Below are positions 3,486 through 41,332 of a stretch of 41,332 nucleotides of DNA, in pieces. Each line of letters starts with the position of its first letter. Within the stretch, counting starts at the first letter, position 1. The notes beneath the pieces were generated by a model. The model saw only the letters and a list, made by a program, of their open reading frames with translations. It searched no databases and was not told where the DNA came from. A program made the position numbers and the translations under genes. This DNA is from Psammoneis japonica (lineage: Eukaryota). The stretch is taken from assembly GCA_008632985.1 (NCBI GenBank), contig QPGO01000359.1:1-41332 (forward strand). The letters run 5' to 3'.

Positions 3486-4901
3486 CTATTCTACACCTTC
3501 CTGCTCTTGTTGCTCCCACGGAAAGTTATCCTTCAACCCTTGCCAGCAAGACATATAATTGACATCACGATACTCACAGTCCAACACTCGAGGATTAAGC
3601 TTGAGCAAATGAGACGTTTCAAACATAAAAGCCAATCCACCTGCAAATTTCGTTGGCTTGGAACAATCCTCGGCAATGGCCTTTTCATACGTGGTGGAGT
3701 CGGGTCCGTGCGGAGTCATGGTCAAGTGAAGCGACGCCCCGCCAGCTACAAATCCCTCCTTGGCATCGTATTTGCCGTGAATCAAACCCATAAATTCACT
3801 CATGGTGTTGCGATGAAACCACGGTGGACGAAAGGTATCATCGTCGGTCGCCATGATGCGGTGCGGAAAAATGACAAAGTCCGCCAGAGCCGTGCCCGTT
3901 TCATTGCCGACGCACGTCAGGACGGTGTAAATGCTGGGATCTAAATGATCGTACGTGACGGAGTTGACGGCACAAAACTTTTCCAAGTCATACTTAAAGG
4001 GCAAATAATTGCCATGCCACGCCACCACATTGTAGGGAGAATGGTTTGCATGACGGACAAACAACTGCCCTCCGTACTTGTTGAGAACGGTGCACGGTTG
4101 GTGATAGTCTTGCTTGTTTTGAACAAACGAGGCCTGAGGATATAGAAAATCACGAGCATTGGCCAATCCATTGGAACCAATCGGACCCAGCTCGGGCAAT
4201 TGAAAGTGGCCCTTGTATACTTCCAACACATATCCGCGAGCAAACAATGTTTCGTCATCTTGTTGCTTTGCAACGTTGAACACAATACCCCGTGGAATGA
4301 CACATACTTCTTTTGGGCTCACTTTTAAAATTCCCATTTCGGTTGTAATCTTGAGAGAACCCTGCTGGGGTACAATGAGAAAGTCACCGTCGGAATTGTA
4401 AAAGTGCGTATCGACCATGTCGTTGTTAAAACAATACATGGAAATGGCCAATCCGTCCTTGGTCATGGCGTCCCCACTTGACGCCATGGTTACCATACCC
4501 GACACAAAGTCCTTGTTGGGTTCTGCCGGCATGGGACTCCAACGAAGGGGTGATGGATTGAGTACAAACTCGTCCGGGCTGACACCACCAAAGAACTTTG
4601 GATAATCCGAGGATACGACGGCATCAGCCTCTTTGAAATCATCCACACACACCACACTGGGTTGAATACGATAGAGCCATGTTCGGCGATTGACAGCACG
4701 GGGACATGTAAAGGCTGTGCCACTCAACTGTTCCGTGTAGAGATTGTACGGGACGTGACGAGGATTGTTGCGGCCTTGCGGCAAGGCACCGTCAATAGCT
4801 TCCGATTCGAAGGAATTGCCAAAGCCAGCGTGATACTCGACAATAGTCTTTGTACGAGTTTCCTGTTGCGTCGTATCGGGTGTTGACGAGATGGGTGTCA
4901 T
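3486..4901 (-). CDS. HGD: Homogentisate 1,2-dioxygenase
   Basis: Motifs GFGNSFESEA..GALPQGRNNP, LYTEQLSGTAFT, WLYRIQPSV, LPELGPIGSNGLAN, VAWHGNY, DHLDPSIYTVLT, FRPPWFHRN, MTPHGPD, LAFMFET. First ATG at 4901; no introns. Confidence 0.96.
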   Translation of the reverse strand: MTPISSTPDTTQQETRTKTIVEYHAGFGNSFESEAIDGALPQGRNNPRHVPYNLYTEQLSGTAFTCPRAVNRRTWLYRIQPSVVCVDDFKEADAVVSSDYPKFFGGVSPDEFVLNPSPLRWSPMPAEPNKDFVSGMVTMASSGDAMTKDGLAISMYCFNNDMVDTHFYNSDGDFLIVPQQGSLKITTEMGILKVSPKEVCVIPRGIVFNVAKQQDDETLFARGYVLEVYKGHFQLPELGPIGSNGLANARDFLYPQASFVQNKQDYHQPCTVLNKYGGQLFVRHANHSPYNVVAWHGNYLPFKYDLEKFCAVNSVTYDHLDPSIYTVLTCVGNETGTALADFVIFPHRIMATDDDTFRPPWFHRNTMSEFMGLIHGKYDAKEGFVAGGASLHLTMTPHGPDSTTYEKAIAEDCSKPTKFAGGLAFMFETSHLLKLNPRVLDCEYRDVNYMSCWQGLKDNFPWEQQEQEGVE

Positions 4902-11000: not shown

Positions 11001-11109
11001 GCAATGTGGCAAATGCAACAAGCGCACAGATCTCAAATCTGCTGTTCTGAGTGCCACACTGAGTGTTGCCATTTTTTGGATTTGCACAACAAAAATCCCA
11101 GTGGCGGTC

Positions 11110-16108: not shown

Positions 16109-16150
<42 letters not shown>

Positions 16151-19409: not shown

Positions 19410-19565
19410 GGTTGAAGGTGAAGTTTGGGAGTTCAAATATAGACGGTTGCTTCAAAAGCAATTATTGCGCTATAGTGTTGTGGGTTTAGTAGTAGTTGTC
19501 GACTGTTGCGATACTGTATAATATGCTTACAGCATACGCTGGTTTGTACTCGTATACTGTTTCTT

Positions 19566-22740: not shown

Positions 22741-22944
22741 TTACTTGTTGCAGTTAAAGATGCTGTCAAAAAAGTCGCCAATGTAGTCAAATGGCGTCTT
22801 GACGATGTTGGTCGTTGCGTCAACGGTATCCGAAGTAAAATCTGCCCCCGTCGAAAGTCCGTGCTTTCCCCAGTCAACCACCTGTTCCGTAACCTTTACC
22901 GGAAGATTCACCGTCTTGGCGGTTACGTCTTTGGCAGTGTCCAT
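22741..22944 (-). CDS. Small 67-aa hypothetical protein
   Basis: MDTAKDVTAKTVNLPVKV...FDYIGDFFDSIFNCNK; the ATG is in a caacATGG context after an A/C-rich leader. No family recognised. Confidence 0.45.
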   Translation of the reverse strand: MDTAKDVTAKTVNLPVKVTEQVVDWGKHGLSTGADFTSDTVDATTNIVKTPFDYIGDFFDSIFNCNK

Positions 22945-23299
22945 GTTGGTTGAGTTGGCTGTGGTTTGCTGTTTGCTATGGGTTGTTTTGCAGCGGTTTC
23001 GGGTTTCGACTCCCGCTCGCCGAAAAGGTGGCGCATGCTGCATGCAGCAAATTGAAAATGGTGGAGAGTTCGGCCAGGTATATTTTCTACCAGAAATTGG
23101 GGCAATTTTTTCATATCCGTGGCCGGTTAAAAGGAAAACGGAAAAAAGGAGGGGATTCAGGCGTTGAACGCACACAAAAAACAAATAGCGAGCGCGTTGA
23201 GCGCGAGAGGTGGGTTCCCTCTATCTAAATTGGCTCAATTTACTGTTTTTCACGCAACAAAAAGCGCATGCGAGCAGCACAATGATGAGTGCTGCCGGT

Positions 23300-23720
23300 G
23301 TTACCGTAGGCATGTTGATATCTCAATGAGTCTTTCACCAATTTTCACGTTTCTTGTTTCATTCTAAACGATAATTTTACAATCTTTCCGAAAGGCTTGG
23401 AACCATTGCGTGTCAATCAGAATTATGGATTTGTGGTTTGTCGAAAGTGTGCCAAAAAAATCGATTGCGCTATTCGAGACAGGTTAGTGCTATTACGATA
23501 TCTCAATGAATTTTTCACCGATTTACCCGTTTCTTGTTTCATTCATAACGATAATTGCACAATCTGTCTGAAGGGTTTGGTCCCATTGTGTGTCAATGAG
23601 ATTTATGGATTTCTCATTTCGTTGAAACCTCACAGAAATTTCAAAATCGAAAAAGCGCGCGCGAAGGAGACAGGTTAGTGCTATTTCGATTCTCAATCGC
23701 GTTTTCACCAATTTTCTCAC
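23300..23720. repeat. Diverged ~185-bp tandem repeat (~2.3 copies), possibly subterminal to the transposon block
   Basis: gatatctcaatga..ttcacc.attt..cgtttcttgtttcattc..aacgataatt at ~23318 and ~23498; gagacaggttagtgctatt at ~23476 and ~23667. Confidence 0.8.
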
Positions 23721-24270
23721 TACTTTTTAGTTTGCGTTAATCTTTGTCCATTACAGAAAATTCAAGGGCCTGGAGTATTTTTTGTGGCAATCTATCATAC
23801 AATGTACCACTTTTGGGAAGAGTAGCATTACTGGTAGCTTGACGGCACCTGGAATAAGTGAGACCACGTCATCAATCTCCCCGTTGTGGAAGAGTGACAT
23901 TACTGGTAAGCTACCGATTGTGAGTAGGTGGAATATTAGCATGCGGCATTTGAGCAGGTGTAAGCCTTGTCCATTCCGCATGCTTGGCATCATTTATTCC
24001 TCTTTCCAGCACTAATCTTTGTACTTGCTATATTCTTTCCAGGGTTTGCACCACTTCCTACAGGTTGACATCTTTTCTTGGGGTTGCACCATATCCTATA
24101 GGTTGATGTGGAGCATACTTACTCTAGAGTTGATGGATGGGGAAAGCGAACTCTACTTTATTATCATTTAGCCATGCACCCCCCCCACTGGCAAATGGGG
24201 GTTAGCATTGGAGAAGGAGGCTCACGAGTCGTCGGCATTGTGGAGTAGCCAGTCGATGTGGGAAAAGGTG

Positions 24271-24540
24271 GCACTGCAGTATCTGGGCGGCATTGGAGTA
24301 GGCGGTGTAGGACACGACAAGCTACGAGTAGGAGTAGGTGGCATTGCAGTATCTGGGCGGCATTGGAGTAGGTGGTGTAGGACACGACAAGCTACGAGTA
24401 GGAGCAGTTGGCATTGCAGTATCTGGGCGGCATTGGAGTAGGCGGTGTAGGCCACGACAAGCTACGAGTAGGAGTAGGTGGCATTGCAGTATCTGGGCGG
24501 CATTGGAGTAGGCGGTGTAGAACACGACAAGCTACGAGTG
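24271..24540. repeat. 70-bp tandem repeat, ~3.9 near-identical copies
   Basis: gcattgcagtatctgggcggcattggagtaggcggtgtaggacacgacaagctacgagtaggagtaggtg at 24271, 24341, 24411 and 24481. Confidence 0.95.
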
Positions 24541-24598
24541 GGGTCTAAGATGACGCCGAACATGCTACATGCAATGTGACAGTAAGTTATTTAATTTA

Positions 24599-27500
24599 TC
24601 ATCGAGCCATGCGCACCCCACTGGCAATGGGAAAGCCATCCAAGCGTTCATCTGCTGGGGTCGTGCAGACGTCATTCGCCTGAATGAACTTCCGTAGCTC
24701 CTTGTTGAATCCGGTCCCTTGGTGATATTCAGCATACATATCAAAAGATTTGTCCATACCACATTTTCGACATCTCCTTCTCACCTTTTGCTTGTTATTC
24801 TTTCTGCTTGCTCCAGGAGGTGTTGTATTTTGCACTGGTTGACGTGTAACGTAGTCTGAAGGACGCTTGCCGCTGGGAAGTTTGCCCACGAAAGGAAGCA
24901 CGGCAACAGGCTCTTGCAACGGTGACTCTGTATCTTTTGTATATTCCACACTGTGATCATCTTCAGCTGTTGGAAGCAAGTCATCAGTGTCATCCGTGAT
25001 GTGGAAATCATCGCCGGTCGGAAACGTTTGGTCGTCTTCAAAAATAGAGTACGGCTTTGGATCATCCTCCGCCGTCTCTGACGCCGGCTTGCCTCGAGGG
25101 GCCGGTTCCACTATTTTTCTGCTGCCAAGGAAAGCAACCTCTGTTGTTCGAGACGGTCCTCTCAACTCCTGTCTCAAGTTCTTGTTCGCCTCCTTCACTG
25201 GTAGAACAGTCGCCGCGACATTCCCTTTCCTTTTGAACTCTTGCCAATACGCCATGAGATGAAATGCGTTTTTGTAAGTCATATCAGTCACCGGTCTCTT
25301 TCCATCATCTTCATCCTTGACTACTTGATTCCAAAAATTTGTCATCTCACCCCATNTGCACGAATAATTATCAGCTTCGGTTTGTCGGCCGTCAAGGCTT
25401 TGATAACTTGTGTAGTTACGACGGAAAAAATCGACTTCTGTGGGCGACTCAACTGGTTTGACGCCTCTTTTCCGACCGAGCTTCTTTGCAATCCAGGAGG
25501 CTGATGCAGGCAATTCTTGATACTTAGAAAGAGATTGATCGCCATCAGCATTATCATCATCCAAGCTGCCATCTTCAAACGCATCAACAAGCTTCGTGAC
25601 TTCGTCTTCAAGATTGCTCTCTCGGAGCGCACCCTCAATGCCGAACTCCTCCCCAGCATTTTTAAAGTCCTCAGTCATCTCCCACTTTGAGTGTGGCGGC
25701 TCGAGCAGCTCTTCCCATGATGCCGTTACCTTGATTTCTTGCTCCACCTCCCAGCCATCGTAGTGGTTGGCACATTTGCTGGGTAGACCGAGAACGCGCA
25801 CACTGACATCGTGGTTCCAACGGTGAACAAATTCATGCAGCAACGCAATGACAAGCCTGGGAGAGTGGTTGAATGCTCGCAGCAGTTGTCGGACTTTTTG
25901 ATGACATCCTTCAAGTGCACTCGTTCCTCGAAGACATTTAAAAAGCGGGATGCCACATGAGTCCGTGCCGATCTGAACGTAGTGCGACATTAAAGGGATG
26001 TCACTGAGGCAACCCTTCCGCATGTGACGAAGCGTAGACTTGTGGAGATTCCATGCTTTCTTTTGAAAGAGTGGCTTCTTGGTCTTTGCGTCCGGCACAT
26101 TTGCAAGAAGATTCACAAGCTTCGTGAATTCTCTCTCCAACTCTTTCGGGCCCGGCACTGCACGACGGACCCGTTTTCGAAAAAACTTCCAGGGCAAGGC
26201 GTTGACATCGTCTTCGCTGAGTCCACTCTTTTGCAATGCTTCCTTGACAAACTCAATGTCAGTCTGGCAAGAAACAAAGAAGACATCCGACAGTCGAGCC
26301 ATGAACACCCCAAAGGCACCGTGGCTTTTCGAGATGACCCTCCCGAACCGAATGAAAATGTGTTCGATGTCTTGCTTCGTATGAAACTGATGCTCGATTC
26401 CCGCTTGTTGTTGGTCTTCATGTTCATCATCACACTCTCCCTCATCATCAATTTCTTCATCGTCTTCATTCTCCATTCCAGGTGGCGGCACAGCAGCAGG
26501 CGGGACAGAAGAATCGTCGGCGCTTTCATCGCTCTCCGACATTCGCTCTTGCATTTTTCTCGTGTGCATTTCAAACGCGACCGCATTGCATTGACTCGTG
26601 GGGACAACCCACAAGTTCCTCAATTCCCACACAATTTCATTTGTGCCATCTGCAGCAATCTCCTCAATGCATTTCTTGTCCATTTTCGGAACAGTTGCAG
26701 AAGGCCGCTTGACGGTGTCGAGTCGAACTGCAACAGCAGCTGGATCGACTTTGACGCAAAAGGGAGTTGCTGATTTTGATGGGCCCACATGGCTTGCTTC
26801 TGCAACTGCCACAGATTTGTTGGTTGTGTGCAGCAATGTCTTGTCATTTTCCTTGAGATCCCTTGCGTCTGGGGGCGGAATCTCTCTGGGATCAACACAC
26901 GGCATGGCCACCATTTTCAAGTGCGCCATCATTTGCACACAAGAATCGACAGCAGCATGACGACAATGCTTGTCATCAATGTGGGATCCTTTCCAATCAA
27001 ACAAATGCAGTCTGTTGTCTTTGTTGACTCCACAGCCAAAAAGAGCCTTCGCAATGTCATCAAGACCAACCGTCGCCCTTTCCACGATGCCTCGTTCTTT
27101 TGCCACGTTCTGCAGGTTCATTGCATTGGTCAATGATGCCCCAATCTGTGCAAGCTTCCTTTTGTCTGCATCAATCTTGGAGGCAACTCTCTTTGTGGCT
27201 TTCGACTCCAAGAGAAGCTTGAGCCCGTCAGGACAGGGTGATGCAAAAACGCAGTTCTCCAAATCAGGCGCAGCAACTTGAACAGTGTGCGGGCCATCCT
27301 CGGTCCCGACCGTCCACTCTGTGTCAATGGACAATGCGCTCCAATTGTTTTCAGCACATTTGGCAAGAATGTCCTTGGCTGTGGCATCGGCAACTTGTTT
27401 TGTAGAGAACGTGATTGGTGGCTTGGCAACGTCGAGATGCTCAACAAATTTGAATCCCTTTCGAGGCTGGTCTGCACCACTTTCACCTTGTGGCTCCACA

Positions 27501-29068
27501 GCGGATGTGGCACAATCCATTTCTTCTTCTGTCTCTGGAACAAAGGAATGGAACATGGGTTCCTTGCCATTGTTTCTGTCTCCTTCATAGAACGAGCGCT
27601 CATCGCAGCATCGATCCGTCGTGAAAACAACAGGGCCTTTAAAACCGTGCATTCTATGCCGTCTGTTGAGACCGCGCAGGCTGTCCTCAACCTCCAATGA
27701 GGTTGCACCGGTGACAAGTCGGAACAACAACACATGGCCAAACTCATTCACAACCGTGTGCAATCCAATGAAACCTCTTTTGTTCTCGATCAAAACGACC
27801 TTTCCAATTTTGACAAAATGGTCCCCAGAAAGGAAAAGGCCGCCATTCATTGTCATTTTGTGACGACAGCAAGGAACACAAGACTCGATTTCTGACATTG
27901 TTGCTTCCAACAGGTGCGCCAGGGAGGGCACTTGCATTTCCGACCTCTCGTCGTCAAAGTCGAAATGCAAACTTCGCTTTTCAATTCGACTGTCCCTTTT
28001 AACTGAGTTGTGAGCAAAAGCAACGTATCCTCGCCACATTTTTGCCTTCACAGCATGAGTCTGCTTGCATCGCTCCGTCAGCGACTTCACAAAGCCAAGC
28101 CCACTCATTCCGTGTGAAAGAGACGATCTCATTTGGTCAATGAGTTTCCATTTGATCGCGCCTTTGGAAGTGATTTTGTGACCATTTTGCCGCCACCAAC
28201 CTTGAACATGCTCGGGTGATTGTGACAGTGCTGCAGAGTCACAGCCATAGAATGTGTGGCTCTCCCTGTCACGGGTGCCGTGGCTCTCCTTCTGCATTCG
28301 CGTGCACATGTGCCGATGCCCGACAAAAGCTTCATTTTGATGCTCCCCGCATGCACGCCTGGCACAATCTGAGTGTCCAAGATGGCTGACACATTCAGTT
28401 TCTCCGGGATGAAAGGGGCAGCAGGGCCTGCATTCTGGCCAATGAAACGACCGCCAACGATCCTCCGGCCCGAAAAACATGACAGGCGGCATGGCAAAAT
28501 CCTCTCGGCAGAGCGGTGCGGCGTTTTCTTGTTCCGCACTTTCTTGTCCTGGTGCAAATGGAAAGTCACTCACTGGATCAGAAGACAAATCAATCATTGA
28601 AGAGCCAAACATTTGAGGCCAGCTTCCGCATGGCTCATGTTTGCCGTTTGCCTTGAACCCAACACACTTCTTGAGATGCTCAGACAACTTGTCGTACACT
28701 TTTAAGGTGCATGAAGTGAAAGAGCCCTTCAAAGCACCATCTTCCACAATGGCATTCCCATCTTGTCGTGAAGCCTTTGCTGCTCTGTTGGAAGCACGAG
28801 TTTCTGCCGCCCTCTTTCCACGACAACTCCTGGCAGCAGCTGCAGTGCTAGCGACGCGATTCTTCTCCTGCTCGGCTGTTTTCTTTGCCGCATTCATCAT
28901 TCTCGCCACTGTGTTTTCCGCCAACCTCTTGTTCCTTCTTGTGGCTTCATTTCTTGCAGAACATGGATTAACCACTGTGGGATTAGAGCCTTGATTCATG
29001 ATGCACAGGTCTGCATTACAAGCATGCGTTTGATGTTGTCGGGTGTCAAAAAAAAGCCGACACATCAA
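24599..29068 (-). mobile_element. Dada-superfamily DDE transposase ORF with inserted DEDDy 3'-5' exonuclease (open but hypermutated)
   Basis: N-terminal Cys/His cluster (CCPFH), D1 SGDHFVK, VVNEFGHV, D2 TTDRCC. Exonuclease ExoI IDTEW, ExoII KIDADKRKL, ExoIII DW...RHAAVD. Then DxxH (KQDIEH), CLRGTSALEGCH (catalytic E) and a C-terminal CRKCG..H..C finger. This order matches my recollection of the Dada architecture. The true start is probably downstream of 29068. Confidence 0.72.
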
Positions 29069-29371
29069 AGTTCAGAATGTGGATGGAATGCAAATTCATT
29101 TGTGCATTCATTGCCAGGATTCGTCCAATGATGTTAAAGCGTGCACCCATGGTAATTCTTATTCACTGTTGGCATTTCTGCATTGCTCTGAATTTGAAAT
29201 CTGACCGCTGTTCATTTAGCTTTCTTTGTGTCGAAGTGGAAATGACACTTGACGATTTGCACTGTTCATTTAGCTTACTTTGGCTCGAAGTCGAACAACG
29301 TTTTTGGGTTATGGGCTTGTCGTCATTCAGCCACGATCATGAAGTCTTTACCGAAATTGGTTCCTCCTCTT

Positions 29372-30276
29372 TTAGGTGGAACTCTCTAGATCGAAGTCTG
29401 AAACCGAAAGATTTTGGATTGCCGCCCTCGCTGCTGTCAGAAAATAGAGCCATGACGATTGCCTGCACCAATCATTTTGCTGCATTTTGTGCCGGGCGTT
29501 CGAATTAATTGCAACACATGACGGTTGTTTCGGTGCGCACTTCTGCGCGACCCACGCGACATGACTAATGTGCGTCAGTGCGTGGTGCTGGTTGTTTTGC
29601 TTCTGACCATTCTGTCTTCTGTGAGGTTTCATGAGGCTGTCTGTGCACATTGATGTTGTCTGGTTGTGCATGTTGATGTTGTCTAAGGCAAGCTGCGTTG
29701 GATCAAGTGAGTGTGGAAATGTTCGAAATTCACGCATTGTTGCAGCTTCTTTGCCAAACAGTTGGTCCTTGTTCATGGCCATGCTCAATCCGCGGCGGCT
29801 TAAGTGAAAGTCCATGTGCACGTATTTTGCGCATTGATGCGGTTGTCTTTGCCAAATGGTTGTTTGCAACTTGCTCAATTCCATTGTTTCTGGCCATGCT
29901 TCTTCTGAAGGGCCTTTGCTTGCTCCTTCTCCTGCTCCGCCATCTCCTCCTCGGTGAAAAATCTCCCCGACCGCTGTGGAATCCCCGCTGCACATGCTGC
30001 CTTTAGCTCCTCCATGGTTGAATCATCCTTGGGTGCGACCGTTGTTTCCACATGATGACTGTCCGCTGTCGTGTTGTCTTGCACAAGTGCAGAAGTGACA
30101 TCAAAATTTCCCGAGGTGAGGTCAAACGCCGCTCTTGCTTCTTCCAAGGTAATCTCCTCTTCGTCTTCCTTGTTCATCAATGACCCAAGAAGTTCCGCAC
30201 GTGTCTGCACCTTTTTCTTGTCCTCACCAGTTTTCTTTGGCTCGTCTGCCTTCTTTGTTTGTTGTTGCAAATCCAT
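29372..30276 (-). pseudogene. Frameshifted accessory ORF between Helitron helicase and Dada transposase (unknown function)
   Basis: MDLQQQTKKADE...ITLEEARAAFDL...AEQEKEQAKAL, continuing in another frame (KYVHMDFHLS...). Confidence 0.4.
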
Positions 30277-30390
30277 GTTTTCTCCATTGCTGCGTTTTCT
30301 GTGACGGTTGCGTTCACGTTTCTTGGTTTGTTGGTTAAAATCCATTCGATGTTGTGTGATGCATGTGTGGATTTCTGTGCAATGTGCTGA

Positions 30391-30530
30391 TCTAATCGAA
30401 ATGTTTTGTTTTACGAAATTTCCGCATTTTTGCGGTTGGGGTCGCCAAACAGTTGTGCAGTCTAATCGAAACATTTTGTTTTGCGAAATTTCTGCATTTT
30501 TACGGTTGGGGTCGCCAAACAGTTGTGCAG
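30391..30530. repeat. 70-bp tandem duplication
   Basis: tctaatcgaa...ggttggggtcgccaaacagttgtgcag at 30391 and 30461, with 5 transition differences. Confidence 0.95.
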
Positions 30531-30561
30531 TGGTTGAGCATCCTAATCTGATGTTTGCGCA

Positions 30562-33500
30562 CTACATTGACATTTCTGCGTGCTGTTGCTGAGAAAAATG
30601 CGTGGCGCTTCTCTCCTTCATGAGTCTTGCCAAGGCTTCGCAGCCTTCTGGGACCTTGCATTTTCGCAGGTCCTTGCTCAGTGGCTTTCGCATGAGCAGC
30701 CCTTCTCTGGTCTTTACTCTGGAGAGCACAACATGCACCCAATTCTGAGTGTAGCTCCAAGAGAGTGCAAACAACTGCGGGACTCCACTCCCTTGCAGTT
30801 TGTGCCCTGCAGTGGCGTTGTTGATGACAAACGGCAGCTGGGTTGCCTTCAGTTGGAAAGTGTGCCTTTGTTTGTCGCCTTCTTCTAAAGTTGGGCTGGG
30901 CTTGGTGATGCAAGCCCTGAAAGCATTTGTTTTTGGCTCAACTAAAAACTTCGCGGGGTCGATGCTTTTGTTGCAGTGTTCCAACACAACGTGGTCCACC
31001 TGACTGGCAAGTGCAGCAGGAGTGCCAATGTTGTTGTCTAAAGTCACTGGTCTTGGTTCCTGTCCTGGTTTGAGAACGACCTTGTCAACAGTGGCTTGCG
31101 TTCCATTTGCTTGACCGTTTGCCACATTTTTGTTGAAAGGTGTCATGACCCCGCATCTTCTGTAAATTCGTAAGACTGGATCCATTCTTCCTGATTGCAT
31201 GATGACGTCTCCTTCACCACAGTTGTTCCAGAAGCTGTTGCAAACCGGAAACGGTTGGCAGAGTCTCGTGCCATTCTGCACCTGCAAGTCGTCACTGAAA
31301 ATCAACATTGAGTCAAGGACATCTCCATCTCTTCTGTGCAGTGTTTCTGCTCTTTTTTTGAATGGGCCAGTGTCAATTGCATCTCTGTCCTCATTTGCGT
31401 GTGCAGCATGGCGGAGGTCACTGGGCAGATCATCTTCGTTCTGAACTGCTCGTTCGTTGATGTGCTCTGTGTCGTCAACTGCAATCTTGCCAGTGCGGAA
31501 TCTCTCAAGCAGTTTTCCCCATGATGGATCGTCTTTAAACCTGTGTGCACCACGAAGTTCTATGTGGCAGTTGATCCACTCGTGAAACTCGGGACATGCA
31601 TCTTTGTGTGGTGGTTTCACTCCTTTTCCGACTGGTTCTAGTTGCCTGAGGTCACCTGCGAAAACAATGTTGATGCCACCGCACGGCTTGCTCAATTCGC
31701 TCTTCAATGCTGTCAAATTCTCATGGAGTTTTTCTAGCTCTCTCTTGCTTGCAAAAGAAATCTCGTCTACCACCGAAAGTTTCGTGTCTGACCATGCTTC
31801 AATTTGCTCTTCGGTTGTTTGCTTTCTTCTCATGAGGCATGCAACTCGGTGGATTGTGTCCCCTTTGAGAACAGTCACAGCCACTCCGGTCAGTGCAGTC
31901 ATTCTGATTGTGCTTGTTGTGAAATGGCTGCTCAACAAGCAAGCAATGCTCTCTTCCGCATTCCACGACGAGGTCTGTTGTGGTTGATTTGCCACTTCCA
32001 CCTGCACCATGTAAAAAACACACAAGTTGCAACGTTCTGCGTCTTTGCACTTCCACGAGTTTCTTCAATTGGCGAAGGTTTGTTACAAATTCGTGTCTGC
32101 TGTTTCTCCTGTTGAGTCCATTGCGTGACGTCTCGTCTTGAAGAGCATCTTGGCAGCAAGTGAGCACAAAGGTTCCTGCCAGAATTTCAAAGGCACGCTG
32201 CTGTTGCCTGTCCAGTCTTGCTTTCCTAGCCCAGTCTACGACACTTGCTGCAGATCCGTTTGCTTGACGTACATCGACGTGTTCTTCCAAACCTGTTGTG
32301 TCCTCAAACGACCTTCTTGTTCTTTGCGTTCTAGTCAGCATCACTCGAACAATGTCGTCTCTTGACAGAGGTCTGCTGTGGATGTGTTGTTGCACTCCTT
32401 CATTCTGGTCTTCCTCGTCGGTGTCATCGCCGCCCTCTAGATTCTCAAAAAGTTGTCGTTCATTGACCTGGCTTTCCTCGTTTGGTGGGTCAGTGTGCAT
32501 GTCTGCCAAGCATTTGCAACCACCCATGTGTGAACCTTTCTGTCTTGCACGTTCACCGCTCAAATGCGCAGGAACAACTGCTTGGTCGCTCAACCCAATG
32601 TCATCATCTTCTGGCTGCTCTGCCATTTCTTCCAAGAGTGCATCCAGCAGTTGACCCTGAATGGCGCCTGAAAGACCTTCTTCCTCGTCACTTTCGCAAC
32701 AGTCAAACGCAACGTCAGCAGGTCTAAATTGCTCCGTCTTTCTTTGCAGATCGTCAGATGTGCTTTTGAGATGAAGGCAGTTGGACTTGGCATCCTGCAG
32801 GTTCTGCAAGAAGTTCAAGTTTTCCTCTGCAACAACACCGGCCACTGCGGAGAGTTGGAATTCACGCAGGCATGTGTGGGTTGTTGGTTTGAGCTCCGTC
32901 ATTGTTCTGTGAGGCGCAAACAAGGCCAATGCCAACTTGCAGCACAATTCTTTGTCCAGTGTTGTTGGTTGCTGTGGATCCATGAGGCAACTGCCAAACT
33001 TGGCTGCATCAGGAAAATCACACTGAAGTGCTTTTGACAATCGCGGTTGCTGTCGCTGTCTGACACCTTGAAGAAACTTGTTCTTCGTTGAATCACAAGA
33101 TGGGTGCCTGTGCGCTCTGTCATCGAACATCATCATGCCATGTTCGTTTTTCCTTGTGTTGCAAAGAACTTCGCATTCACTAAAAAACGCAAACGGACCA
33201 AGATTCTCACAGTGCTGTTGGACGACATGGGTGGTGCAAGGCCTGGCATTGGAAGAACGGTGCATCGCCAAAATGGGCTACAGTCACAGACACTTCGTCT
33301 CTTTCTAGTGTGCTGACAATGTCTTTCAAGGGGCACCATGCGGTCAAATGAGATTCGATGAAACGGCCTCCGTTCCTTGTCATGTAAGACGCGAGTGGTG
33401 GTCCAATGACGTTCGTCTTGTCATGCGAGCAAGCACCCCACATGAGACGTCTGATTGCTTCTGATGCATCAGATGCGTGTTTCCGCAATTCCGTCACCAT

Positions 33501-36215
33501 CCTGTTTGTAGTTTGAAGCACTTCGTCGTACGATGCAGTGTCATCTTTCTGGGTGTCTTTTAGGATGTGCTCAATCGTGTGTTGAGTGGACGGTCCAGGC
33601 ATCAACAAAGCAATGTTTGTGTTGCATGTCAGTTTTGATCTGCTTGTTGCGGGGCACGACACGTTTTGAAAAGCATCGCACTTTCTCCTCTTCAGAACAA
33701 CTTCCTTCACATGCCGATGCGCAAAAGTTCCATCCCAGCTGAACCACTTTGTCTGAGTGTCATCTGCATTCCTTGTCAAATTATTTGGACACGAAGCAGC
33801 TGGTTGCCTGTGATGGCAGTCACCTGGTTTGAGCTCCTCTCGTTTCCTTTTCCTTGACTGCGTGTCCAGTTCCTCGTGTGGGGTTTTTTTGTGCATTTTA
33901 CGCAACTCTGCGCATTTGGGAAAACACGACTTCGCAACGTGCATGTGATGGTTGTAAGCTGTGTCCGGCACATGTGCCTCTGTTGTCCCTTGCGGACCAC
34001 TTCACTGGCATTGCACACACACTGCTTTTGGTTGCTTTGCATGGTCATCTGGATGGCGAGTCAGGCCAGGTGCATGGTGCCGTGACTGCAAAAAGCTTTC
34101 TACAAACTCGACGTTTGTCCAGCACTTGGTGCAGTGACGACAACAAGCAAACATTCTGTTCTTCGACTGCTGGCCGTCTTCATGCCTCAGGTTTCTTAGC
34201 TGTTGGTCATCTGCTGCTTTTGGAGAGGCACGACACATTTTTGGCACTGTGCAGTCATGATCGAATGCTTCACACAACGCGTCAGTGCTGAAGTCCTCGC
34301 CACAGATTAATTCCGTGCTGCAGATCTTCTGAACCATGTTGGCAAGGCACTCAGCACCTTCGCGTCGGATCTGTCTCATTGGCGAATGCAGTTTCTCTCT
34401 TGCATTGTTGGTCGATGCGAACCAGATCTGCATGTGCCCGTGTGCTGTCAGACGTCCCTGCTCCTCAACTGCGGCTAAAAATGCGGCTGGCCTGCCAATG
34501 CAGAAGTTAAAGTTTTCTCTTGGTTGGTCAGCACTCAGATCCCAACCCACTGCCTCTTCTGTTGCAATGTCAAACAAGCACTCGAATGCAAAGGCTGTTA
34601 GACCGGGAAACTTTGGACGCAGTTCATTGCGTTGCTCAGCCCTGCTGGCAAGAATTTCATCCGTCAGTTGTGTCACGTCTTCGTTTGGGTCCAGGATGAC
34701 ACCCGAGCACAGTTGTGCAAGAAACGAATTTGCATCGTCCGGACTGACTGTTAAGAAAATGCCACCCCAACCAAAATGATGCTGATGAGTTTCGGCGTTT
34801 CTCCTCATTTTCTTTGCTGCTTCGTCACTGTGTGGCAGAGACGCAGATGCAACGTTGAGTGCGCACAAAAAGTGGTGCCCGAGTCCACAATCTCTTCTCT
34901 CGCCCAAGTTGCGATCACAAACAGCTCTGTCCACATCGTCCGCTGTTGGTTCGTTTGCAAACTGTGCAGCCTGATTCTTGTCCCTGACTTTCCACCCTGC
35001 GCTCTGTGGCATCCTTTGCTTCATTGTCAAGTTGCAGCATGTTAACACGAAGAGCTGCTGGTGGAAGTGAGGCTGGGAAATCCGTGCTGAGTGGTCGGCA
35101 TGGTGTGCAAGGTTGGTGCCATCTGCAAGACTTCCGTCTTTCTTCATTCTCGTCTCATTGATTCCTCCTCTGCCAAAAGGAAACTGCAGCAGACACACGT
35201 CAATGAAGTTGTTGCCTTTGAAATCACTCGCAGATTCTTTAGACAACTGTGCTTGTGCCTCTAAATCAAATCCGTTGGCAGCAGCTTCGTGTGCAAGATC
35301 TTTGAAGCAGTCCAGGTTGCACTGACCACCGGTCGCAGGAGACATGGTTCCATCAGGAAAGCAAGTGTGAAATGACTCTGAGGTCTCAACATTCGCATTT
35401 TCTCCTTCTTCTTTGCTGGTGCTGTCGACAAGTGCGGGATTTCGCAGATTGCGCCCAACTTCGTCTAGATTTGTCTGTTGGTGCACCCACTCTTGGTCAT
35501 GGCACAACAGCCACTCCATTGCCCTTGGCATGCAGTGCGCTCCAATTCTGTTCTTTGAATGTGCAAGTTGTCTTTGCTCCGGAGTCATCTTTCCAGTCAT
35601 CAGTGCAATCACATTCTGATGTAAACTCAGTGCGTCGAAGTGCACAACAGTTCTTACGATGCTTTGCATCTTGACTTTGTAGCACGCCAGACTTCCCTGA
35701 AGCTTCTTCTGTTTGCCGCCAAGGCAACTGAAGCAGTGTCCACATGTTTTCACTGGTGTGAGCATTGCCAACTCCACTTCGGTTAGAGACAACAGTTCGT
35801 GTGGCGGGGTGCCAAAACAGCAGTTGTTCGCTGTCACGTACATTGGCACAACGGCTCTTCCCAGGCTTCTTCGGCATTCGCTGCAGCAAGTGAATCCGTC
35901 GATGCATCGTCTGTCTTCCTGCACTGCGTGTTGGGCGCAGGGAGAAAGCAGCAGGTCTTTGATCCAATCAGCATCTTCATGCCCCACAGTGCAGCAGGAC
36001 TTGAGACGATCAGATGCGCTGTTCCAGTCTGAAGGGGTGAGCAAGTTTCTTGCTGATTCCAATGTTTCAAGCGGCAAGCAGCAAACTTCTCCAGGTTTCA
36101 GCAGAACGTCACAGACCAAACATGCGTGTGGTCTAAATTCTCCGTCTCCATGCAGACAAAGCATCTCAAACTTTCCATTGATTGTGCTGCAAACACGGGA
36201 GTTGGCCTCGTCCAT
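30562..36215 (-). mobile_element. Helitron Rep (HUH)-PIF1 helicase gene, pseudogenised
   Basis: Rep: LLQFPFGRGG, IFLTVSPDD, VEEQGRLTAHGHMQIW (HUH), HTIEHILK (degraded YxxKY), VIGPPLASYM. Helicase: GAGGSGKST, TALTGVA..TIH, VDEIS, GGINIVFAGDLRQLEPV, HRFKDD, ANGT, HKLQG, VHVVLSRVKT. In-frame TGA at 34002 and frameshifts near 33210 and 31920. Confidence 0.9.
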
Positions 36216-36329
36216 TTTAACTCAAGCTGACACTTCAACTCAACAAATTTCAAGAAGTCACTCAGTGAAAACAGTTGTTTTTTCAGTGCGCAGTTGTTTT
36301 TTCGGTGCGATCACCGTGAAGCTGCGATC

Positions 36330-36965
36330 GGTGCCATCCAATCACCACAGCGATGTGTGTTTTCTCACCACCTGCAGCACTGCGACTGGTGTCGTCCAGT
36401 CACCACAGTGGTTCTGTCCAGTTGATCAACGAACCGCGTCGGTGCCATCTGTTCACCGCAGCACTGTGTCGTCTTCTCACAACCTGTGCAATCAGGTTGC
36501 TGTGAGTGCTGTGACTGGTGCTGTCCAGTCACCGCAGCCGAGTCAATCAGTTGCTTGACGAACTGCGTCGGTGCCACCCGATCACTGCAGCATTGTGTCG
36601 TGTTCTCACAACCTGTGCGATCAGGTCTCTGTGAGAGCTGCGACTGGTGTCGTCCAGTCACCGCAGCTGAGCTTGTGCGTCATCTCACAACCTGCGTTAC
36701 GAGGTGCAGTGCTGTGTTGTTTGCTCACAACCTGTGCAATCAGGTCGCTGTGAGAGCTGCGACTGGTGTCGTCCAGTCACCGCAGCCAAGTGAATTAGTT
36801 GCTTGACGAACTGCGTCGGTGCCATCTGATCACCGCAGCATTGTGTCGTGTTCTCACAACCTGTGCAATCAGGTCTCTGTGAGAGCTGCGACTGGTGTCG
36901 TCCAGTCACCGCAGCTGAGCTTGTGCGTTGTCTCACAACCTGCGTCACCAGGTCACTGTGAGAAC
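36330..36965. repeat. ~129-bp tandem repeat, ~5 copies, upstream of/at the 5' end of Helitron Rep
   Basis: g(c/t)gactggtg..gtccagtcacc(g/a)cag at ~36382, 36511, 36640, 36759 and 36888. Confidence 0.9.
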
Positions 36966-37157
36966 TGAGAACTGCGATCGGTGTGGCCCAATCACCGTAG
37001 TTGGATGCTTTTCGTTTCCCTTTGCGCAAAGGTTCTGTCACAAAAAAGTGAGACGAAAGTGTGCCTCTTTCACCTCGATGGAAGAGTGACGTGTGCGTTC
37101 CTCCCACGTCCTTCTTCGCACCAGACGTGCGACATCCCACTTAGTTTCATCGACGTT

Positions 37158-37258
37158 GAACATCCCATGGGACAAGATTTGGATCTTGTTCAAGTTGTTT
37201 TGACCATCTGCTCTGAACATTCCATGGGGCAAGATTTGGATCTTGTTCAAGTTGTTTC
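37158..37258. repeat. 57-bp tandem duplication
   Basis: gaacat(c/t)ccatggg(a/g)caagatttggatcttgttcaagttgttt occurs twice. Confidence 0.85.
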
Positions 37259-37802
37259 GGCAATCTTGGTGGTGGGCGCAGCTTTGCATGAATTCCGCAG
37301 AATTACGCTTTAACGAGTGGCGGGGCAGTTGAGCCAGTCGTGTGGCAACAACAACACGATTGACGTCATTCGTGTTTCCAAAGTGCGTGCGAATCCTCCA
37401 AATGGGTGATGGGCCCACCTTAGCCAACTGCCGGTGCAGTGGTGACAGCGATGGCGTCGACCGTTTGGCAACTAGATTTCGTGCGCGATGGCTGCGCGGC
37501 AGTGACGGCTGAAATGCACATGAAGCACGGACGGAATTGCACGTGATTTTACGCATTTTCAGCAAACTTGCTGCGACTTTGCGTGCTCCGATCCTTGCAC
37601 CTGTTTTGTTCAAATTGAGTCCACACACCACTTGCAAGTGCTGACACCTGGAAGGTCACCTTGTTGCAGTTCGACGTGTTTGGATCTAGTTGCTGACATT
37701 GCCAGTTCTCCTTGGCATGATGCACGCAGCTCTGCTGGGTCTTTCTTGGCACTTCTGAACGATCGCACTTTTTGTTCCCACAATTTCTCTCCGACTGATT
37801 CG

Positions 37803-38675
37803 ATGGCACGCAAAAGAAACACAATGACCTCCCCGGCTGCGAAAGCCAAAGTCGCCAAAACCAAACAGAAGAAGGCAAAGACGAAGTTTTCTGATGCTCT
37901 GTTGAAGAAACTGAGTCCGCCCCGCAAGACCAACGGCTTGACCGACGACGACCTTAAACCGGAAGACCACCTTGCCAAGCACGGGTTCAAGCTTTCCAAA
38001 TCCGCCAGTTCTGACGATGGCAGCCATTCCGACAAGGACGCCCTCCTGCGCTGCGCCACCGTCACTGTCGGCCGCAAGAAAGGCATCGTTTTTCGTCTCC
38101 AAGCCAAGAATCCCCTTTCAACCAATGTTTGGTCGGAGAAGGTTCTGTTTGACAACCTTCGCAGCAGGACTCCGTGGGTGGTTCAAGTCGGATTCCACCC
38201 TTGCGCTGGCAGGTGGGTTCACGAAGGCGAGTTGCAGACGAACGCCAAGAACTGCGCCGTGCGTCTCTTCTTCATCTTCCTCGAAGAAGTCCCAACCGAT
38301 GCCAAAGTGCGCGGCCTCGGGAAGTGCATTGCGAAGCAGCTCAACGATGACCCTGAGAACAACGCCAAGGTCTTCGTTGAAGACGACTTCTTCTGGATGA
38401 AGGATGCTGTTTGGTCCGAAGTGATCGGCAACGAGGCGGCGCTTGCCGAGCTTCAGAAGGAAGGTGGTCAGTTTCACATCGGTTGGTGCGCCCAAAACAA
38501 GAACTTGCTTCACAGTTGCTTCTACGAGGGGTCGTTGCCTGTGGAACTCTGTCATCTCATTGGAGCTCCGGCAGAAGAAGCTGGAGAAGAGGCCGACGAT
38601 GATGTCGAGCTCAACTGCGAAGTTGACCTGAACGTCGATGACGACTTGGTGCTTCAGGACAGGGACGAAGACTGA
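37803..38675 (+). CDS. Hypothetical element-borne protein (Lys-rich N-terminus, acidic C-terminus), TA-mutated
   Basis: Long ORF with gene-like codon usage, divergent from Helitron Rep. Only one Tyr, with Cys at Tyr-like positions (LLRCA, HPCAG, GKCIA). Followed by a T-tract. Confidence 0.55.
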   Translation: MARKRNTMTSPAAKAKVAKTKQKKAKTKFSDALLKKLSPPRKTNGLTDDDLKPEDHLAKHGFKLSKSASSDDGSHSDKDALLRCATVTVGRKKGIVFRLQAKNPLSTNVWSEKVLFDNLRSRTPWVVQVGFHPCAGRWVHEGELQTNAKNCAVRLFFIFLEEVPTDAKVRGLGKCIAKQLNDDPENNAKVFVEDDFFWMKDAVWSEVIGNEAALAELQKEGGQFHIGWCAQNKNLLHSCFYEGSLPVELCHLIGAPAEEAGEEADDDVELNCEVDLNVDDDLVLQDRDED

Positions 38676-38763
38676 GTTGTTTTTTTTTTTTGCCGGTGCA
38701 GTGTAAATTTGTAAATGTTTGGCAAACTGAGTGTCGATTGCAACTCAGCTTTCCTCTGTCTCT

Positions 38764-39807
38764 TCAAGCATGTGCCATCTCCGACGACAACTTGTCGTTG
38801 CCGCGAAGCAATGGCGAATTGAGTGGAGCAACCAGCGTGTGACGTCTAGCACAGTGACAGCAAAAAAACAGTTCAGTTGAGTTCTTAAGCAAAATTGGCT
38901 GTTTCGCGACGGGTGAACACTTCCGTTCCAAGTGTGTCAGAGTGGGACGTCGCATGTGCTGGCTGGTTGACTGAGAAGTCTCCTCTTTCTTGGTGCACTT
39001 GTGGAAGACGAGATGTTTCACGTCTCTGCTGTGCCACAAAAAGTCGCCATCATGGCAATCCGCCGTGAAGGACTCGCACATCCACTCTCCCGCGTGCGAC
39101 GCGAACAGCGGATCTAGCGCCACCACCACGGTCCCAGCAGGACACAACTTCGAAAGCATCGCCTCTGCCTTCTGCTGTGTGTTCTTGTCGTTGACCACAC
39201 GGGAGTTGCAGTTGTTGAAGAACACCTTGAGTCCTTTCTTTTTCCACAAAGGAGCCAGCCTCTCGTCCAAAAATGACTTGTTGATCAACTCCAACCCGCA
39301 GTTTGAGCGAAGGCCAGCATGATGAGCCCAACGTACAGCCTCTTGGTGACGATTGTGGTTGGCCTCGATGCTCACCATGGTGCAACGGCGACGAAGTAAC
39401 TTGAGCCCGATGCTGGGTCCGGCAACTCCCCCGCCCATGTCGACAGATGTGTCGCAGGTGTGATTCACGCCAAGAAGGCGTTCGTTCAAAAACACTTTGC
39501 TGCTCAAAGCGAAGCCAACTTCGCCGCTGTGCGAAGATCCGCTTCCGTCTCCGGAGACACGCCTGCTCTGGAACGCGGAGTCCGGAGCCATTTGAAGACA
39601 AAACTCCCTGACACTTCTGCAATGATGGTTCATCGCATCCAACCTTGTGGCAACGTCAACCTTGCTTGCAGCGGGTTCGACCAGACGTCGCGTTTCCAAA
39701 CCAAACTGTGATGTGCGCAGAATGCGTAAATTTACCGTCGCGCCCTCTGTGCACGTGAAATTTTCAAACGCAGCGTGCTGCCTCTGCCTGCATGTGGAGC
39801 GATGCAT
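38764..39807 (-). CDS. DOT1-like class I SAM-dependent methyltransferase (hypermutated, probably inactive)
   Basis: HSGEV (cf. YGE), VDMGGGVAG (SAM motif I), VSIEAN (cf. GIE), NKSFL, VFFNNCN (cf. VxFxNNF), GTVVVALDPL (cf. GxRIVSxxP). ORF ends may be extended by loss of TAA/TAG. Confidence 0.6.
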   Translation of the reverse strand: MHRSTCRQRQHAAFENFTCTEGATVNLRILRTSQFGLETRRLVEPAASKVDVATRLDAMNHHCRSVREFCLQMAPDSAFQSRRVSGDGSGSSHSGEVGFALSSKVFLNERLLGVNHTCDTSVDMGGGVAGPSIGLKLLRRRCTMVSIEANHNRHQEAVRWAHHAGLRSNCGLELINKSFLDERLAPLWKKKGLKVFFNNCNSRVVNDKNTQQKAEAMLSKLCPAGTVVVALDPLFASHAGEWMCESFTADCHDGDFLWHSRDVKHLVFHKCTKKEETSQSTSQHMRRPTLTHLERKCSPVAKQPILLKNSTELFFCCHCARRHTLVAPLNSPLLRGNDKLSSEMAHA

Positions 39808-40208
39808 GAAGTCATTTTAAACAGACATGTGGACGCGTTGAAACAATGAGACACCTCCAGGCGATAAAATTTGTTTTGAATCTTGGCCTGCTTCTCATCA
39901 TTGCTGCACTTGTGTGTCCGTGCAATTCAAACGCATGAGCTGGCACGGCACGCAACGCACTTCTACGCGAGAACTCGCACTGAGGTTGCCGTGGGATGAT
40001 CCTCCCTCCGCGGAGACAAAAACAACGCGACAACACTTCCGTCATCACATTTTGAAACACATTTCAAATTGAGACACACCATGTCGCAACTGCCTCGTGC
40101 CTCGCTGCGTCGTCCCACCAACCACAAGCACTTGTCGCGATCGAGTTACAGCCGGTCTCGACAGTGTGGGGGTTTGGGACGTGCAGCTCGCAGCCTGACA
40201 ACAAGCAA

Positions 40209-40405
40209 ACACTTCTCGCGATTAGGTTTCGACCCCACTCCCCTGGAGTCCGCCGGTCCCTGTCAACAGAGTTTTGCTTTGGGTGCTCTTGAGGCAACGG
40301 AAAGCAGACACATCTCTCGATTGGGTTTTGACCCCACTCCCCTGGAGTCTGCCAGTCCCTGTCGACAGAGTTCTGCTTTGGGCACTGTTGAGACGACAGT
40401 GACAG
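40209..40405. repeat. 99-bp tandem duplication
   Basis: gaccccactcccctggagtc..gtccctgtc.acagagtt.tgctttggg at ~40232 and ~40331; minus strand gives CPKQNSVDRD..TPGEWG and HPKQNSVDRD..TPGEWG. Confidence 0.9.
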
Positions 40406-41332
40406 TGTCAAGCAGCGGAACATTTGCCGGTGAGTTCGCACACACGTTCTCTGCGAACACCGCATCGTCAATGCGCACCAGGACGTGCGAGAACGTGTTG
40501 AGGGCTCAACCGCCACTTCGCAAGGCCCACCGCAGCCGCAGGCGAATCCGCAGCCGCGCCAGTGGGAAAACATCCAAGATTGCTCGCCTCATTCCACTCG
40601 CACCGTGCGCCACTGAGAGTCTCTCCATGCACTGTGTAGCTGGCCGCACTCCAGTTTGTGACAGCGACCACACTCAGCCTGCACCACCTTGTCTTGCTGA
40701 CATTGACTTTGCCGAATTGGCTCCTCTGGTCGTCTGTGACCCTGTGCTCAATCTGAAGCCTTTCTTTGGCTTGGACGGTTGCTGCTGCGACAACACCTGC
40801 ACCCTGCTGCCGCGTTCTGCTGTGGTGTTCAGCTCCCCCAACCCAGCAGAACCAGTTGCTCAGTGCCGAGTGCTCGAAGCACTAGAATGCTGCACCACCC
40901 AGTCCACCGTGCATGGCAAACAACGCGTTGCCTTCATGGAGATGGACAGGAGCAAGTGTTCCACGATTGGCCTGGCTGCCACGAGAGATGCTCGAATTTC
41001 TTGCAAGCAGCCTGGCACAGCCGACCAACACACTCACCACCTCACCAGACTTCTTTCACGCATGGAGCACCTTGTCAATGAGTGCGTGGACTGTGCCATC
41101 CTTGAGGGCATCGCTCGTGTCAAAAAGTTTCACAACTGGAAATCCCTGGTGCAGTCAGATGGCATTTTCTCCTCTCTGGCGGCTGGGCGCAATGTCTTCC
41201 TCAACGCCCATCGGGACCAGGACTTCTTCCTGTCAGCAGTCACCGTGGTGGGAGTCCCTCCGTCCGGCAGCCACACCATGAATGACGGGATTGTGGCGCA
41301 CTTCTGCTTCCCTGCCGAAGGCATCTCCGTTG

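Follow-up and report, generated by a model that had tools for sequence, protein, structure and literature searches.

Mutation-accumulation lines of the chlorarachniophyte Bigelowiella natans gain new A>G and T>C changes that all lie at TpA, in an integrated giant-virus region and a virophage region and at roughly 1,000 times the background rate. Its genome also contains 124 clusters of TpA-poor, CpA- and TpG-rich windows enriched for transposase and reverse-transcriptase domains, and in its main text the preprint puts forward a DNA adenine deaminase resembling ADAT2 (Mettrop et al., bioRxiv 10.64898/2026.01.13.699255). That main text never uses the words "Helitron," "tyrosine," or "diatom" (0 occurrences each), and the supplements may list Helitron-like genes among TpA-poor coding sequences; in our literature search this preprint was the sole match, and no paper on TpA loss in diatom transposons was found. 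For the Helitron transposase Helraiser, the published report describes a complete loss of transposition in HeLa cells when Y727, Y731, or both are mutated, and a complete loss of in vitro cleavage with Y731F or the double mutant (PMC4778049). Here we describe a Helitron Rep/helicase gene on a contig of the Psammoneis japonica assembly GCA_008632985.1 (QPGO01000359.1, positions 1 to 41,332 of the forward strand; this whole 41,332-nt stretch is called the window below). The Rep HUH nuclease of this gene carries HTIEH where a two-tyrosine motif is expected, and we consider it very likely that HTIEH is the wreck of a Y-x-x-K-Y active site made by a one-way, TpA-specific process acting on the surrounding block, leaving a copy that cannot perform tyrosine-dependent nicking.

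The minus strand at 33581..33567 reads CAC ACG ATT GAG CAC (HTIEH; residues 881 to 885 of the read-through protein), with CAA before it and ATC CTA AAA after it, and the Glu codon GAG is preceded by ATT, giving a T|GAG context. A sequence-only reading of this stretch had read QHTIEHILK here and had proposed that reverting only TA-context transitions restores QYTIKYILK, the canonical two-tyrosine motif of Helitron HUH endonucleases; Y-T-I-K-Y would be the ancestral form. The read-out is exact, and the relative closest over the motif stretch (P0062; 172 of 317 residues identical, 54%) carries the reverted form letter for letter (QYTIKYILKDTQK, versus QHTIEHILKDTQK in the window). A single TpA>CpA or TpA>TpG step separates each of the three altered residues from the family consensus. 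An ancestral TAC-ACN-ATT-AAG-TAC would have become HTIEH through three TpA transitions on the coding strand (T>C, A>G, and T>C), which would have removed both tyrosines that would form the covalent 5′-phosphotyrosine link. Three distinct TpA sites are involved, as had been claimed, but these need not have been hit in separate events. The last residue of the Y-x-x-K-Y-x-x-K pattern, Lys888 (AAA; 33558..33560, minus strand), is retained.

We searched the Rep protein, read through its stop codon with X at that position (P0001), against 1.84 billion representatives with full HMMER and obtained 1,250 matches at E ≤ 0.001, including 260 at E ≤ 1e-30; the best of these are colinear over residues 10 to 1003, with E values down to 1.8e-260. 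In an alignment of the window protein with 23 full-length relatives (A1), both motif positions are Tyr in 23 of 23 relatives and the middle Lys is present in 20 of 23, while K888 is invariant with the window included; the Y881 and Y885 columns are near-invariant rather than invariant because the window alone departs. Among 119 relatives aligned by profile over the motif, 92 read Y..KY..K, 115 have the first Tyr, 114 the second, and all 119 the last Lys, and none reads HxxEH. Relatives without a motif Tyr have Cys, His, or, in P0145 alone, Ser; four of them (P0017, P0043, P0100, and P0121) have lost the first or both tyrosines, with Cys or His instead. In both sets the two-tyrosine motif falls on the HTIEH columns and not elsewhere, so that H881 and H885 stand where the two active-site tyrosines of a Helitron (Y-x-x-x-Y) are expected. 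Since these histidines replace tyrosines that are kept in relatives, the element reads as a Helitron decayed by descent and not as a working one. Word-indexed protein searches (near and shorter lengths) gave nothing above 42% and 54% identity, and a scan of viral contigs gave no relative; the clusters of ten relatives that were looked up come from metagenomes only.

The predicted fold is consistent with this placement. An AlphaFold2 model of residues 380 to 965, built on an alignment of 63 relatives, has a mean predicted local distance difference test score of 87.9 and a predicted TM-score of 0.86, with HUH on a strand (model residues 213 to 222) and HTIEH on a helix (model residues 498 to 507). 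Its top Foldseek match is the Helraiser transposase 7lcc_A (E = 0.039, probability 0.99), and VIA-align pairs model residues 1 to 586 with chain residues 422 to 789 (Z = 14.4, root-mean-square deviation 3.8 Å, 291 aligned), a range that takes in H593/H595 and Y727/Y731 in the numbering of PMC4778049; the next structural matches are viral HUH Rep nucleases with Z of 4.2 to 5.5. Like Helraiser RepHel (PDB 7LCC), this family has an N-terminal Helitron_like_N domain, HUH on a strand, and, in the relatives, a Y-x-x-x-Y pair on a helix, and a single gene encodes its Rep together with a Pif1-like superfamily 1B helicase that has a Walker A motif. Unlike Helraiser, the window copy has His/His for the two tyrosines and Glu for the Lys between them, its clade carries an insertion of about 150 amino acids that is rich in Cys and His, and Rep sequence similarity is too low for HMMER. 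By analogy with the Helraiser mutants (PMC4778049), the copy would be catalytically dead, and the earlier claim that the change inactivates the enzyme stands as an argument by analogy.

Tyrosine loss is not confined to the motif. The window protein contains 5 Tyr in 1,004 residues (0.5%, versus 2.9 to 4.8% in relatives) and is enriched in His (5.3%) and Cys (5.6%; relatives have 2.3 to 4.4% of each). We compared 611 columns across the whole gene with conservation of at least 60% in the 23 relatives, with the ancestral step deduced from the window codon and its neighbors. The window departs at 144 of these columns: 53 departures are explained by a single TA>TG or TA>CA step, 5 by another A>G or T>C change, 14 by a CpG-type step, 10 by another C>T or G>A change, 36 by a transversion, and 26 by more than one step, and TpA context accordingly accounts for 53 of the 58 inferred A>G or T>C changes. 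At the 33 conserved Tyr columns, the window keeps 4 and has 13 Cys, 12 His, and 4 Phe (25 of 33 now His or Cys); conserved His is kept at 19 of 20 columns and conserved Cys at 18 of 19 (37 of 39 together), and none has become Tyr. The same context appears at non-Tyr codons of the Rep part: a T stands before 7 of 9 A>G changes at first codon positions (binomial P = 0.0013 versus 0.25), and an A stands after 10 of 11 T>C changes at second positions (binomial P = 8e-06 versus 0.25). Because the conserved-residue counts and the non-Tyr context tests agree, the argument that invariant residues polarize the change as TA>CA/TG, made originally from the motif, holds across the whole gene, and on this alignment the loss of Tyr is gene-wide and one-way. 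Support for a purine requirement before Tyr>His sites is weak and mixed: the window has a preceding purine at 6 of 12 such sites and a metagenomic relative, L001, at 6 of 8, and at Tyr>Cys sites the counts are 10 of 15 and 5 of 20.

A metagenome scan confirmed at least two independent loci among the 599 pattern matches listed, each with an unbroken Rep/helicase frame of about 1,880 amino acids, and these differ sharply in TpA content. L002 has TA odds of 0.53 and CG odds of 0.82; its protein has 68 Tyr, the motif YYQFKYNMK, and 29 of 33 conserved tyrosines, and only 1 of its 66 deviations is a TA-type step. L001 has TA odds of 0.03 and CG odds of 0.30; its protein has 2 Tyr, the motif QCNFKHVLK, and 1 of 33 conserved tyrosines, and 30 of its 90 deviations are TA-type steps. 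L001 thus shows the same erasure of Tyr and TpA as the window, with the TA-normal L002 as a control, and its full-length frame (L001:2071-7692; 1,874 codons) is very probably dead. More widely, about 8 of 180 relatives have less than 1.2% Tyr (median, 3.3%). Three of the four relatives that have lost the first or both motif tyrosines (P0017, P0100, and P0121) are among the most Tyr-poor, while P0043 falls outside the 25 Tyr-poorest listed. Helitron proteins free of Tyr occur in public protein sets (P0014, P0017 and its cluster of 6, P0121, and P0100), and, if a host editor of the kind proposed below exists, their presence in several unrelated metagenome assemblies would suggest that it is widespread in marine protists. 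If our reading is correct, Tyr content would be a protein-level marker of hypermutated elements in any protein database.

The erasure in the window is regional. Whole-window odds are 0.28 for TA, 1.475 for CA, and 1.465 for TG, but the stretch is a sharply bounded mosaic of TA-poor blocks (1001-3400, 7901-17400, and 25601-41300; TA odds, 0.05 to 0.14) and TA-normal blocks (1-1400, 3001-8300, and 17001-26000; TA odds, 0.54 to 0.58; CG odds, about 1.0), in which 1-kb windows at TA odds of 0.00 to 0.16 adjoin host genes at 0.5 to 0.7. The Helitron lies in a TpA-depleted, CpA- and TpG-enriched block of at least 15.7 kb that runs off the end of the window (25601..41332; TA odds, 0.12 to 0.14; CG odds, 0.79); from 26001 to the window end, TA odds are ≤ 0.25 in every 1-kb window and CA and TG odds are mostly 1.4 to 1.85. 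The most extreme block, 7901-17400, includes a TA-free run of 2,943 bp (10284-13227) and has open reading frames (ORFs) with an LRR_6 match only. Host genes occupy the TA-normal blocks, namely chaperonin exons, an ORF for a homogentisate 1,2-dioxygenase, and another that is acyltransferase-like. CG odds are uneven, at 0.29 over block 7901-17400 (0.07 to 0.36 in 1-kb windows) and 0.79 around the Helitron (0.6 to 0.8), and CpG loss seems to reflect a distinct process superimposed on this DNA. GC content is 0.49 to 0.51 in depleted blocks versus 0.47 in normal blocks. Such a pattern very probably results from a regional, one-way, TpA-specific process that turned some 85 to 90% of the TpA of the Helitron block into CpA or TpG, erased 25 of 33 conserved Tyr codons, and spared the neighboring host genes, which remain at a normal TA level. 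The mosaic, the spared host genes, and the B. natans precedent lead us to infer a host defense directed against mobile or foreign DNA, like the one caught in action in B. natans.

Because TAA and TAG are themselves TpA targets, a gene decayed in this way retains long open frames. On both strands of 26001-41332 there are 623 TGA, 93 TAA, and 74 TAG triplets, compared with 292, 139, and 145 in host DNA at 17001-25000. With two of the three stops removed, long spurious ORFs fill all six frames (108 of at least 60 amino acids overlap 28000-41332). Another nine ORFs from the TA-poor blocks gave no Pfam match at E ≤ 0.1, and one gave LRR_6 only. If the erasure is as we describe, frames in dead elements can stay open over as many as about 1,900 codons, and gene callers would report them as proteins.

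The TA dinucleotides that survive have a characteristic context. Of 148 survivors in the depleted blocks, 76 are flanked as Y-TA-R (pyrimidine before, purine after; TTAA, CTAG, TTAG, and CTAA) and 9 as R-TA-Y, and survival per base relative to host-block density is 0.4 to 0.6 for Y-TA-R and 0 to 0.05 for R-TA-Y; the size of this effect is uncertain, as the denominator is coding host DNA, in which TAA and TAG are scarce. Among 13 survivors in L001, 5 are Y-TA-R and none is R-TA-Y. These contexts suggest an editor with a preference for A before a pyrimidine, 5′-TAY-3′, which is the Tyr codon. The dependence on flanking bases, with R-TA-Y lost first, offers a testable specification for the responsible enzyme.

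Of the described systems, TpA hypermutation in B. natans is the most similar: according to the main text of the preprint, A>G and T>C changes there occur almost only at TpA, TpA-poor and CpA- and TpG-rich 1-kb windows are clustered, and foreign or mobile sequences are affected while ordinary genes are spared (bioRxiv 10.64898/2026.01.13.699255). The present locus differs from it in several respects. Its host is diatom-like rather than chlorarachniophyte, its target is a Helitron with many related copies, it is close to saturation (TA odds of 0.00 to 0.16, versus 0.45 reported for the B. natans viral region) and depleted of CpG as well, and the process seen live in B. natans is known here from its end state. 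The identity of the host is indicated by the homogentisate dioxygenase gene (4901..3489), for which the 9 organism-named relatives among the 120 listed are all diatoms at 52 to 60% identity (Amphora, two Skeletonema, Fragilaria, a Bacillariaceae species, Nitzschia, Cylindrotheca, Thalassiosira, and Cyclotella); its best matches reach 63 to 68%. The host genes therefore look diatom-like, the host is unlikely to be B. natans, and the "stramenopile" of the sequence-only reading fits the gene next door. Atlas clusters for the dioxygenase are too broad to inform taxonomy. If our reading is correct, TpA hypermutation, so far reported once and in one chlorarachniophyte, also occurs in another lineage of eukaryotes and affects a DNA transposon.

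Two other systems offer more distant parallels. Repeat-induced point mutation (RIP) of ascomycete fungi likewise riddles repeated or mobile DNA with transitions at one dinucleotide, wrecks genes, and leaves a block mosaic. RIP as described, however, has the opposite polarity: it changes C to T mostly at CpA and creates TpA, AT-rich DNA, and many stops, whereas the depleted blocks here lose TpA, gain slightly in GC, and have lost most TAA and TAG. As the process at work here, fungal RIP is ruled out by the TpA loss and by the higher GC of depleted blocks. Animal APOBEC and ADAR enzymes share context-dependent deamination as a defense that leaves hypermutated fossil copies, but they act on RNA or reverse-transcription intermediates, in contrast to a DNA transposon and its flanks altered in place.

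As to chemistry, adenine deamination at TpA on either strand is a plausible candidate that we hold tentatively, at somewhat less than an even chance. A broader proposal, on which we are evenly divided, is that diatom-like stramenopiles run a RIP-like DNA editor of opposite polarity that acts on the adenine of 5′-TA(Y)-3′ on both strands of silenced mobile DNA. With the Tyr codon as its preferred site, HUH Reps and, by extension, tyrosine recombinases would lose their nucleophiles, and the removal of TAA and TAG would leave stop-poor "zombie" frames. A different route to the same end is unlikely, although it deserves weight: the process may be TpA specific but work through a modified thymine or adenine (for example, hydroxymethyl-uracil or N6-methyl-adenine) that mispairs at replication at TpA sites in silenced chromatin. 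Deamination and mispairing are indistinguishable in the present data; the flank dependence, with R-TA-Y almost gone and Y-TA-R surviving best, fits a writer enzyme as well as a deaminase, and the accompanying loss of CpG from these blocks is a pointer to DNA that is modified and silenced. We know of no base modification at TpA in diatoms, which counts against this route. The authors of the B. natans preprint, in the main text, favor an ADAT2-like deaminase, as a hypothesis only (bioRxiv 10.64898/2026.01.13.699255).

RNA editing of the ADAR type, copied back into DNA, would also convert A to G with a preference for a 5′ U, which the Discussion of the B. natans preprint notes for ADAR (bioRxiv 10.64898/2026.01.13.699255), and the near-equal numbers of changes on the two strands (13 Tyr>Cys versus 12 Tyr>His) are as expected for double-stranded RNA. 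It is nonetheless very improbable, given that Helitrons move as DNA, as the Helraiser report describes (PMC4778049), that the TA-poor block spans several unrelated elements and spacers over more than 15 kb, and that the B. natans changes, by the preprint's account, arose in a single-copy, transcriptionally silent insert (bioRxiv 10.64898/2026.01.13.699255).

The lesions of the gene itself bear on whether systematic base-calling or assembly errors at modified TpA sites could have produced the pattern. The Rep/helicase gene (30562..36215, minus strand; about 5.65 kb) starts with ATG at 36215, ends with a stop codon at 30562-30564, and is a single colinear gene from 36215 to 30571 in three frames, as traced by tblastn with relatives of 1,610 to 1,911 amino acids (P0003, P0005, and P0002), with frame changes at about 33209 and about 31924-31959. 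The first interruption is an in-frame TGA at residue 740 (34002..34004), aligned with Arg in the closest relative (P0062) and consistent with CGA>TGA; HTIEH lies in a stop-to-stop ORF (33207..34001) in the same frame as ORF 34002..36221, with this lone TGA between them. A one-base frame shift at 33209 then changes frame -3 to -1, and a second, in a T run at 31924..31925, changes frame -1 to -2 (all on the minus strand). One public run, X1, contains the stretch (0.42 of the sampled words of 27000-36900) and may be the source sample and hence not independent; two others, X2 and X3, contain hardly any of these words. In X1, 247.8 of 247.8 depth (2 contigs) lacks the extra base at 33209, and 2,425 (1,350 + 1,075) of 2,527 depth lacks the one at 31924..31925. 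Since the X1 contigs mostly or wholly lack the extra bases, the two frame shifts are either private to this copy or assembly errors; if both are errors, the TGA may be the sole frame break of this copy.

The assembly may thus hold small errors, and X1 may share its source, but as an explanation of TpA loss such artefacts are highly improbable. X1 contigs agree with stretches of the window at 0 to 3 differences per 204 to 241 bases, unrelated metagenome assemblies contain Tyr-free relatives (P0014 and P0017) and L001 with its TA odds of 0.03, each lost TA became either CA or TG, and the B. natans changes were, according to the preprint, seen with Illumina reads (bioRxiv 10.64898/2026.01.13.699255). 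Ordinary neutral transposon decay, with CpG deamination and random transitions yielding His/Glu/His by chance, would account for the reduced CpG of the TA-poor blocks and the 14 CpG-type deviations. It is scarcely credible beside the TpA context of 53 of 58 A>G or T>C changes, the lack of any conserved His or Cys turned Tyr, the sharp contrast in TA odds with host genes, the 2,943-bp TA-free run, and the single TA-type step in L002. That HTIEH is not homologous to the catalytic motif and the true tyrosines lie elsewhere, as the HUH-to-motif spacing (285 residues versus about 132 by Helraiser residue numbers in PMC4778049) and a phmmer search of the two Rep ORFs against solved structures (chance-level rows only for both) might suggest, has a negligible probability, given the colinear alignment over residues 10 to 1003, the near-invariant Tyr columns, a conserved Cys/His-rich insertion that makes up the extra spacing, and a fold match spanning Helraiser 422 to 789.

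Several points weigh against our reading that a TpA-specific process wrecked this active site. The enzyme, its targeting signal, and any ongoing activity would be deduced from an end state, none of the three having been observed. The correspondence with the Helraiser tyrosines comes from the aligned range and modeled fold rather than residue by residue, and the A1 sequence profile matches Helraiser in the helicase part only. The closest proteins are 54 to 71% identical, and ancestral states would thus derive from distant relatives (26 to 71% identity) rather than sister copies; no same-family copy with intact tyrosines was seen at the DNA level, the motif site lying outside the 40 contig differences listed. 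Four conserved Tyr that became Phe and the 36 transversions represent ordinary divergence. An excess of CA and TG cannot by itself be polarized, as CpG loss (14 CpG-type steps) also yields CpA and TpG; the two losses, otherwise indistinguishable, are separated by invariant catalytic residues. Finally, a flank of low summed depth (27000-28985) is also TA-poor, and copy number may therefore not be the trigger.

Related copies of the element are numerous in X1. Summed word depth is 2,400 to 8,000 across 28986-36900, compared with 71 to 232 across 27000-28985, and together with loose ends at 29081 this delimits a stretch with many related copies (29081..36900, minus strand), whose right limit is the end of the compared stretch. 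We found 2,360 X1 contigs on 9.9 kb at 85 to 100% likeness, a figure that is not a copy number: 556 at ≥ 99%, 726 at 95 to 99%, 854 at 90 to 95%, and 224 below 90%. Contigs matching stretches of the window do so with 0 to 3 differences in 204 to 241 bases. Differing places among contigs are mostly transitions (289 of 321; A>G 66, T>C 69, C>T 80, and G>A 74), and 7 adjacent CA/TG swaps occur among the 40 differing places listed, the outcome to be expected where one ancestral dinucleotide went to CA in one copy and to TG in another.

Apart from its tyrosines, the gene retains a recognizable Helitron architecture (all features on the minus strand). ORF 34002..36221 holds Pfam Helitron_like_N and DUF6570, the former at 34431..35069 (residues 385 to 597; E = 1.4e-08, 35.6 bits versus a cutoff of 28.9). 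The HUH motif, H594-G-H596 in AHGHMQIW (34434..34442), is intact; H594 and H596 are invariant in A1, and their codons contain no TA. ORF 30562..32064 holds PIF1 and AAA_30, with a Walker A motif, GAGGSGKS, at 31985..32008 and a PIF1-like helicase match at 31552..31908 (E = 8.8e-13, 48.8 bits versus 25.9); the A1 profile matches PIF1 structures and the helicase part of Helraiser. Between HUH and the Tyr motif, the insertion typical of this Helitron clade (33900-34300; residues 655 to 802 of P0001) has eight invariant residues in A1 (H655, C657, C694, C697, H759, H761, C766, and C802) and looks like a putative zinc-binding module without a counterpart in Helraiser. Helitron ends are defined as 5′-TC ... 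CTRR-3′ with a 3′ hairpin; on the candidate 3′ side of this element, a 7-bp inverted repeat (29086-29109) does not exceed shuffled sequence in folding stability (z = -0.62).

Beyond the element, the minus strand at 24599-29071 holds a 1,490-codon open frame that has no Pfam match at E ≤ 0.1; by Atlas features it resembles proteins with DUF6729 and a 3′-5′ exonuclease (score 0.95), which we treat as a lead only. The border between TA-poor and TA-normal DNA at about 25.6 kb falls within this frame, as do a single N in the assembly, at 25356, and the TA-poor flank of low summed depth at 27000-28985. Tandem repeats, which may represent a Helitron 5′ region or a satellite, lie in or beside the TA-poor block. 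Those directly preceding the Rep start (36329-36953) have units of 129 and 248 nt; the others have units of 70, 57, and 99 nt, at 24188-24537, 37148-37261, and 40203-40397, respectively.

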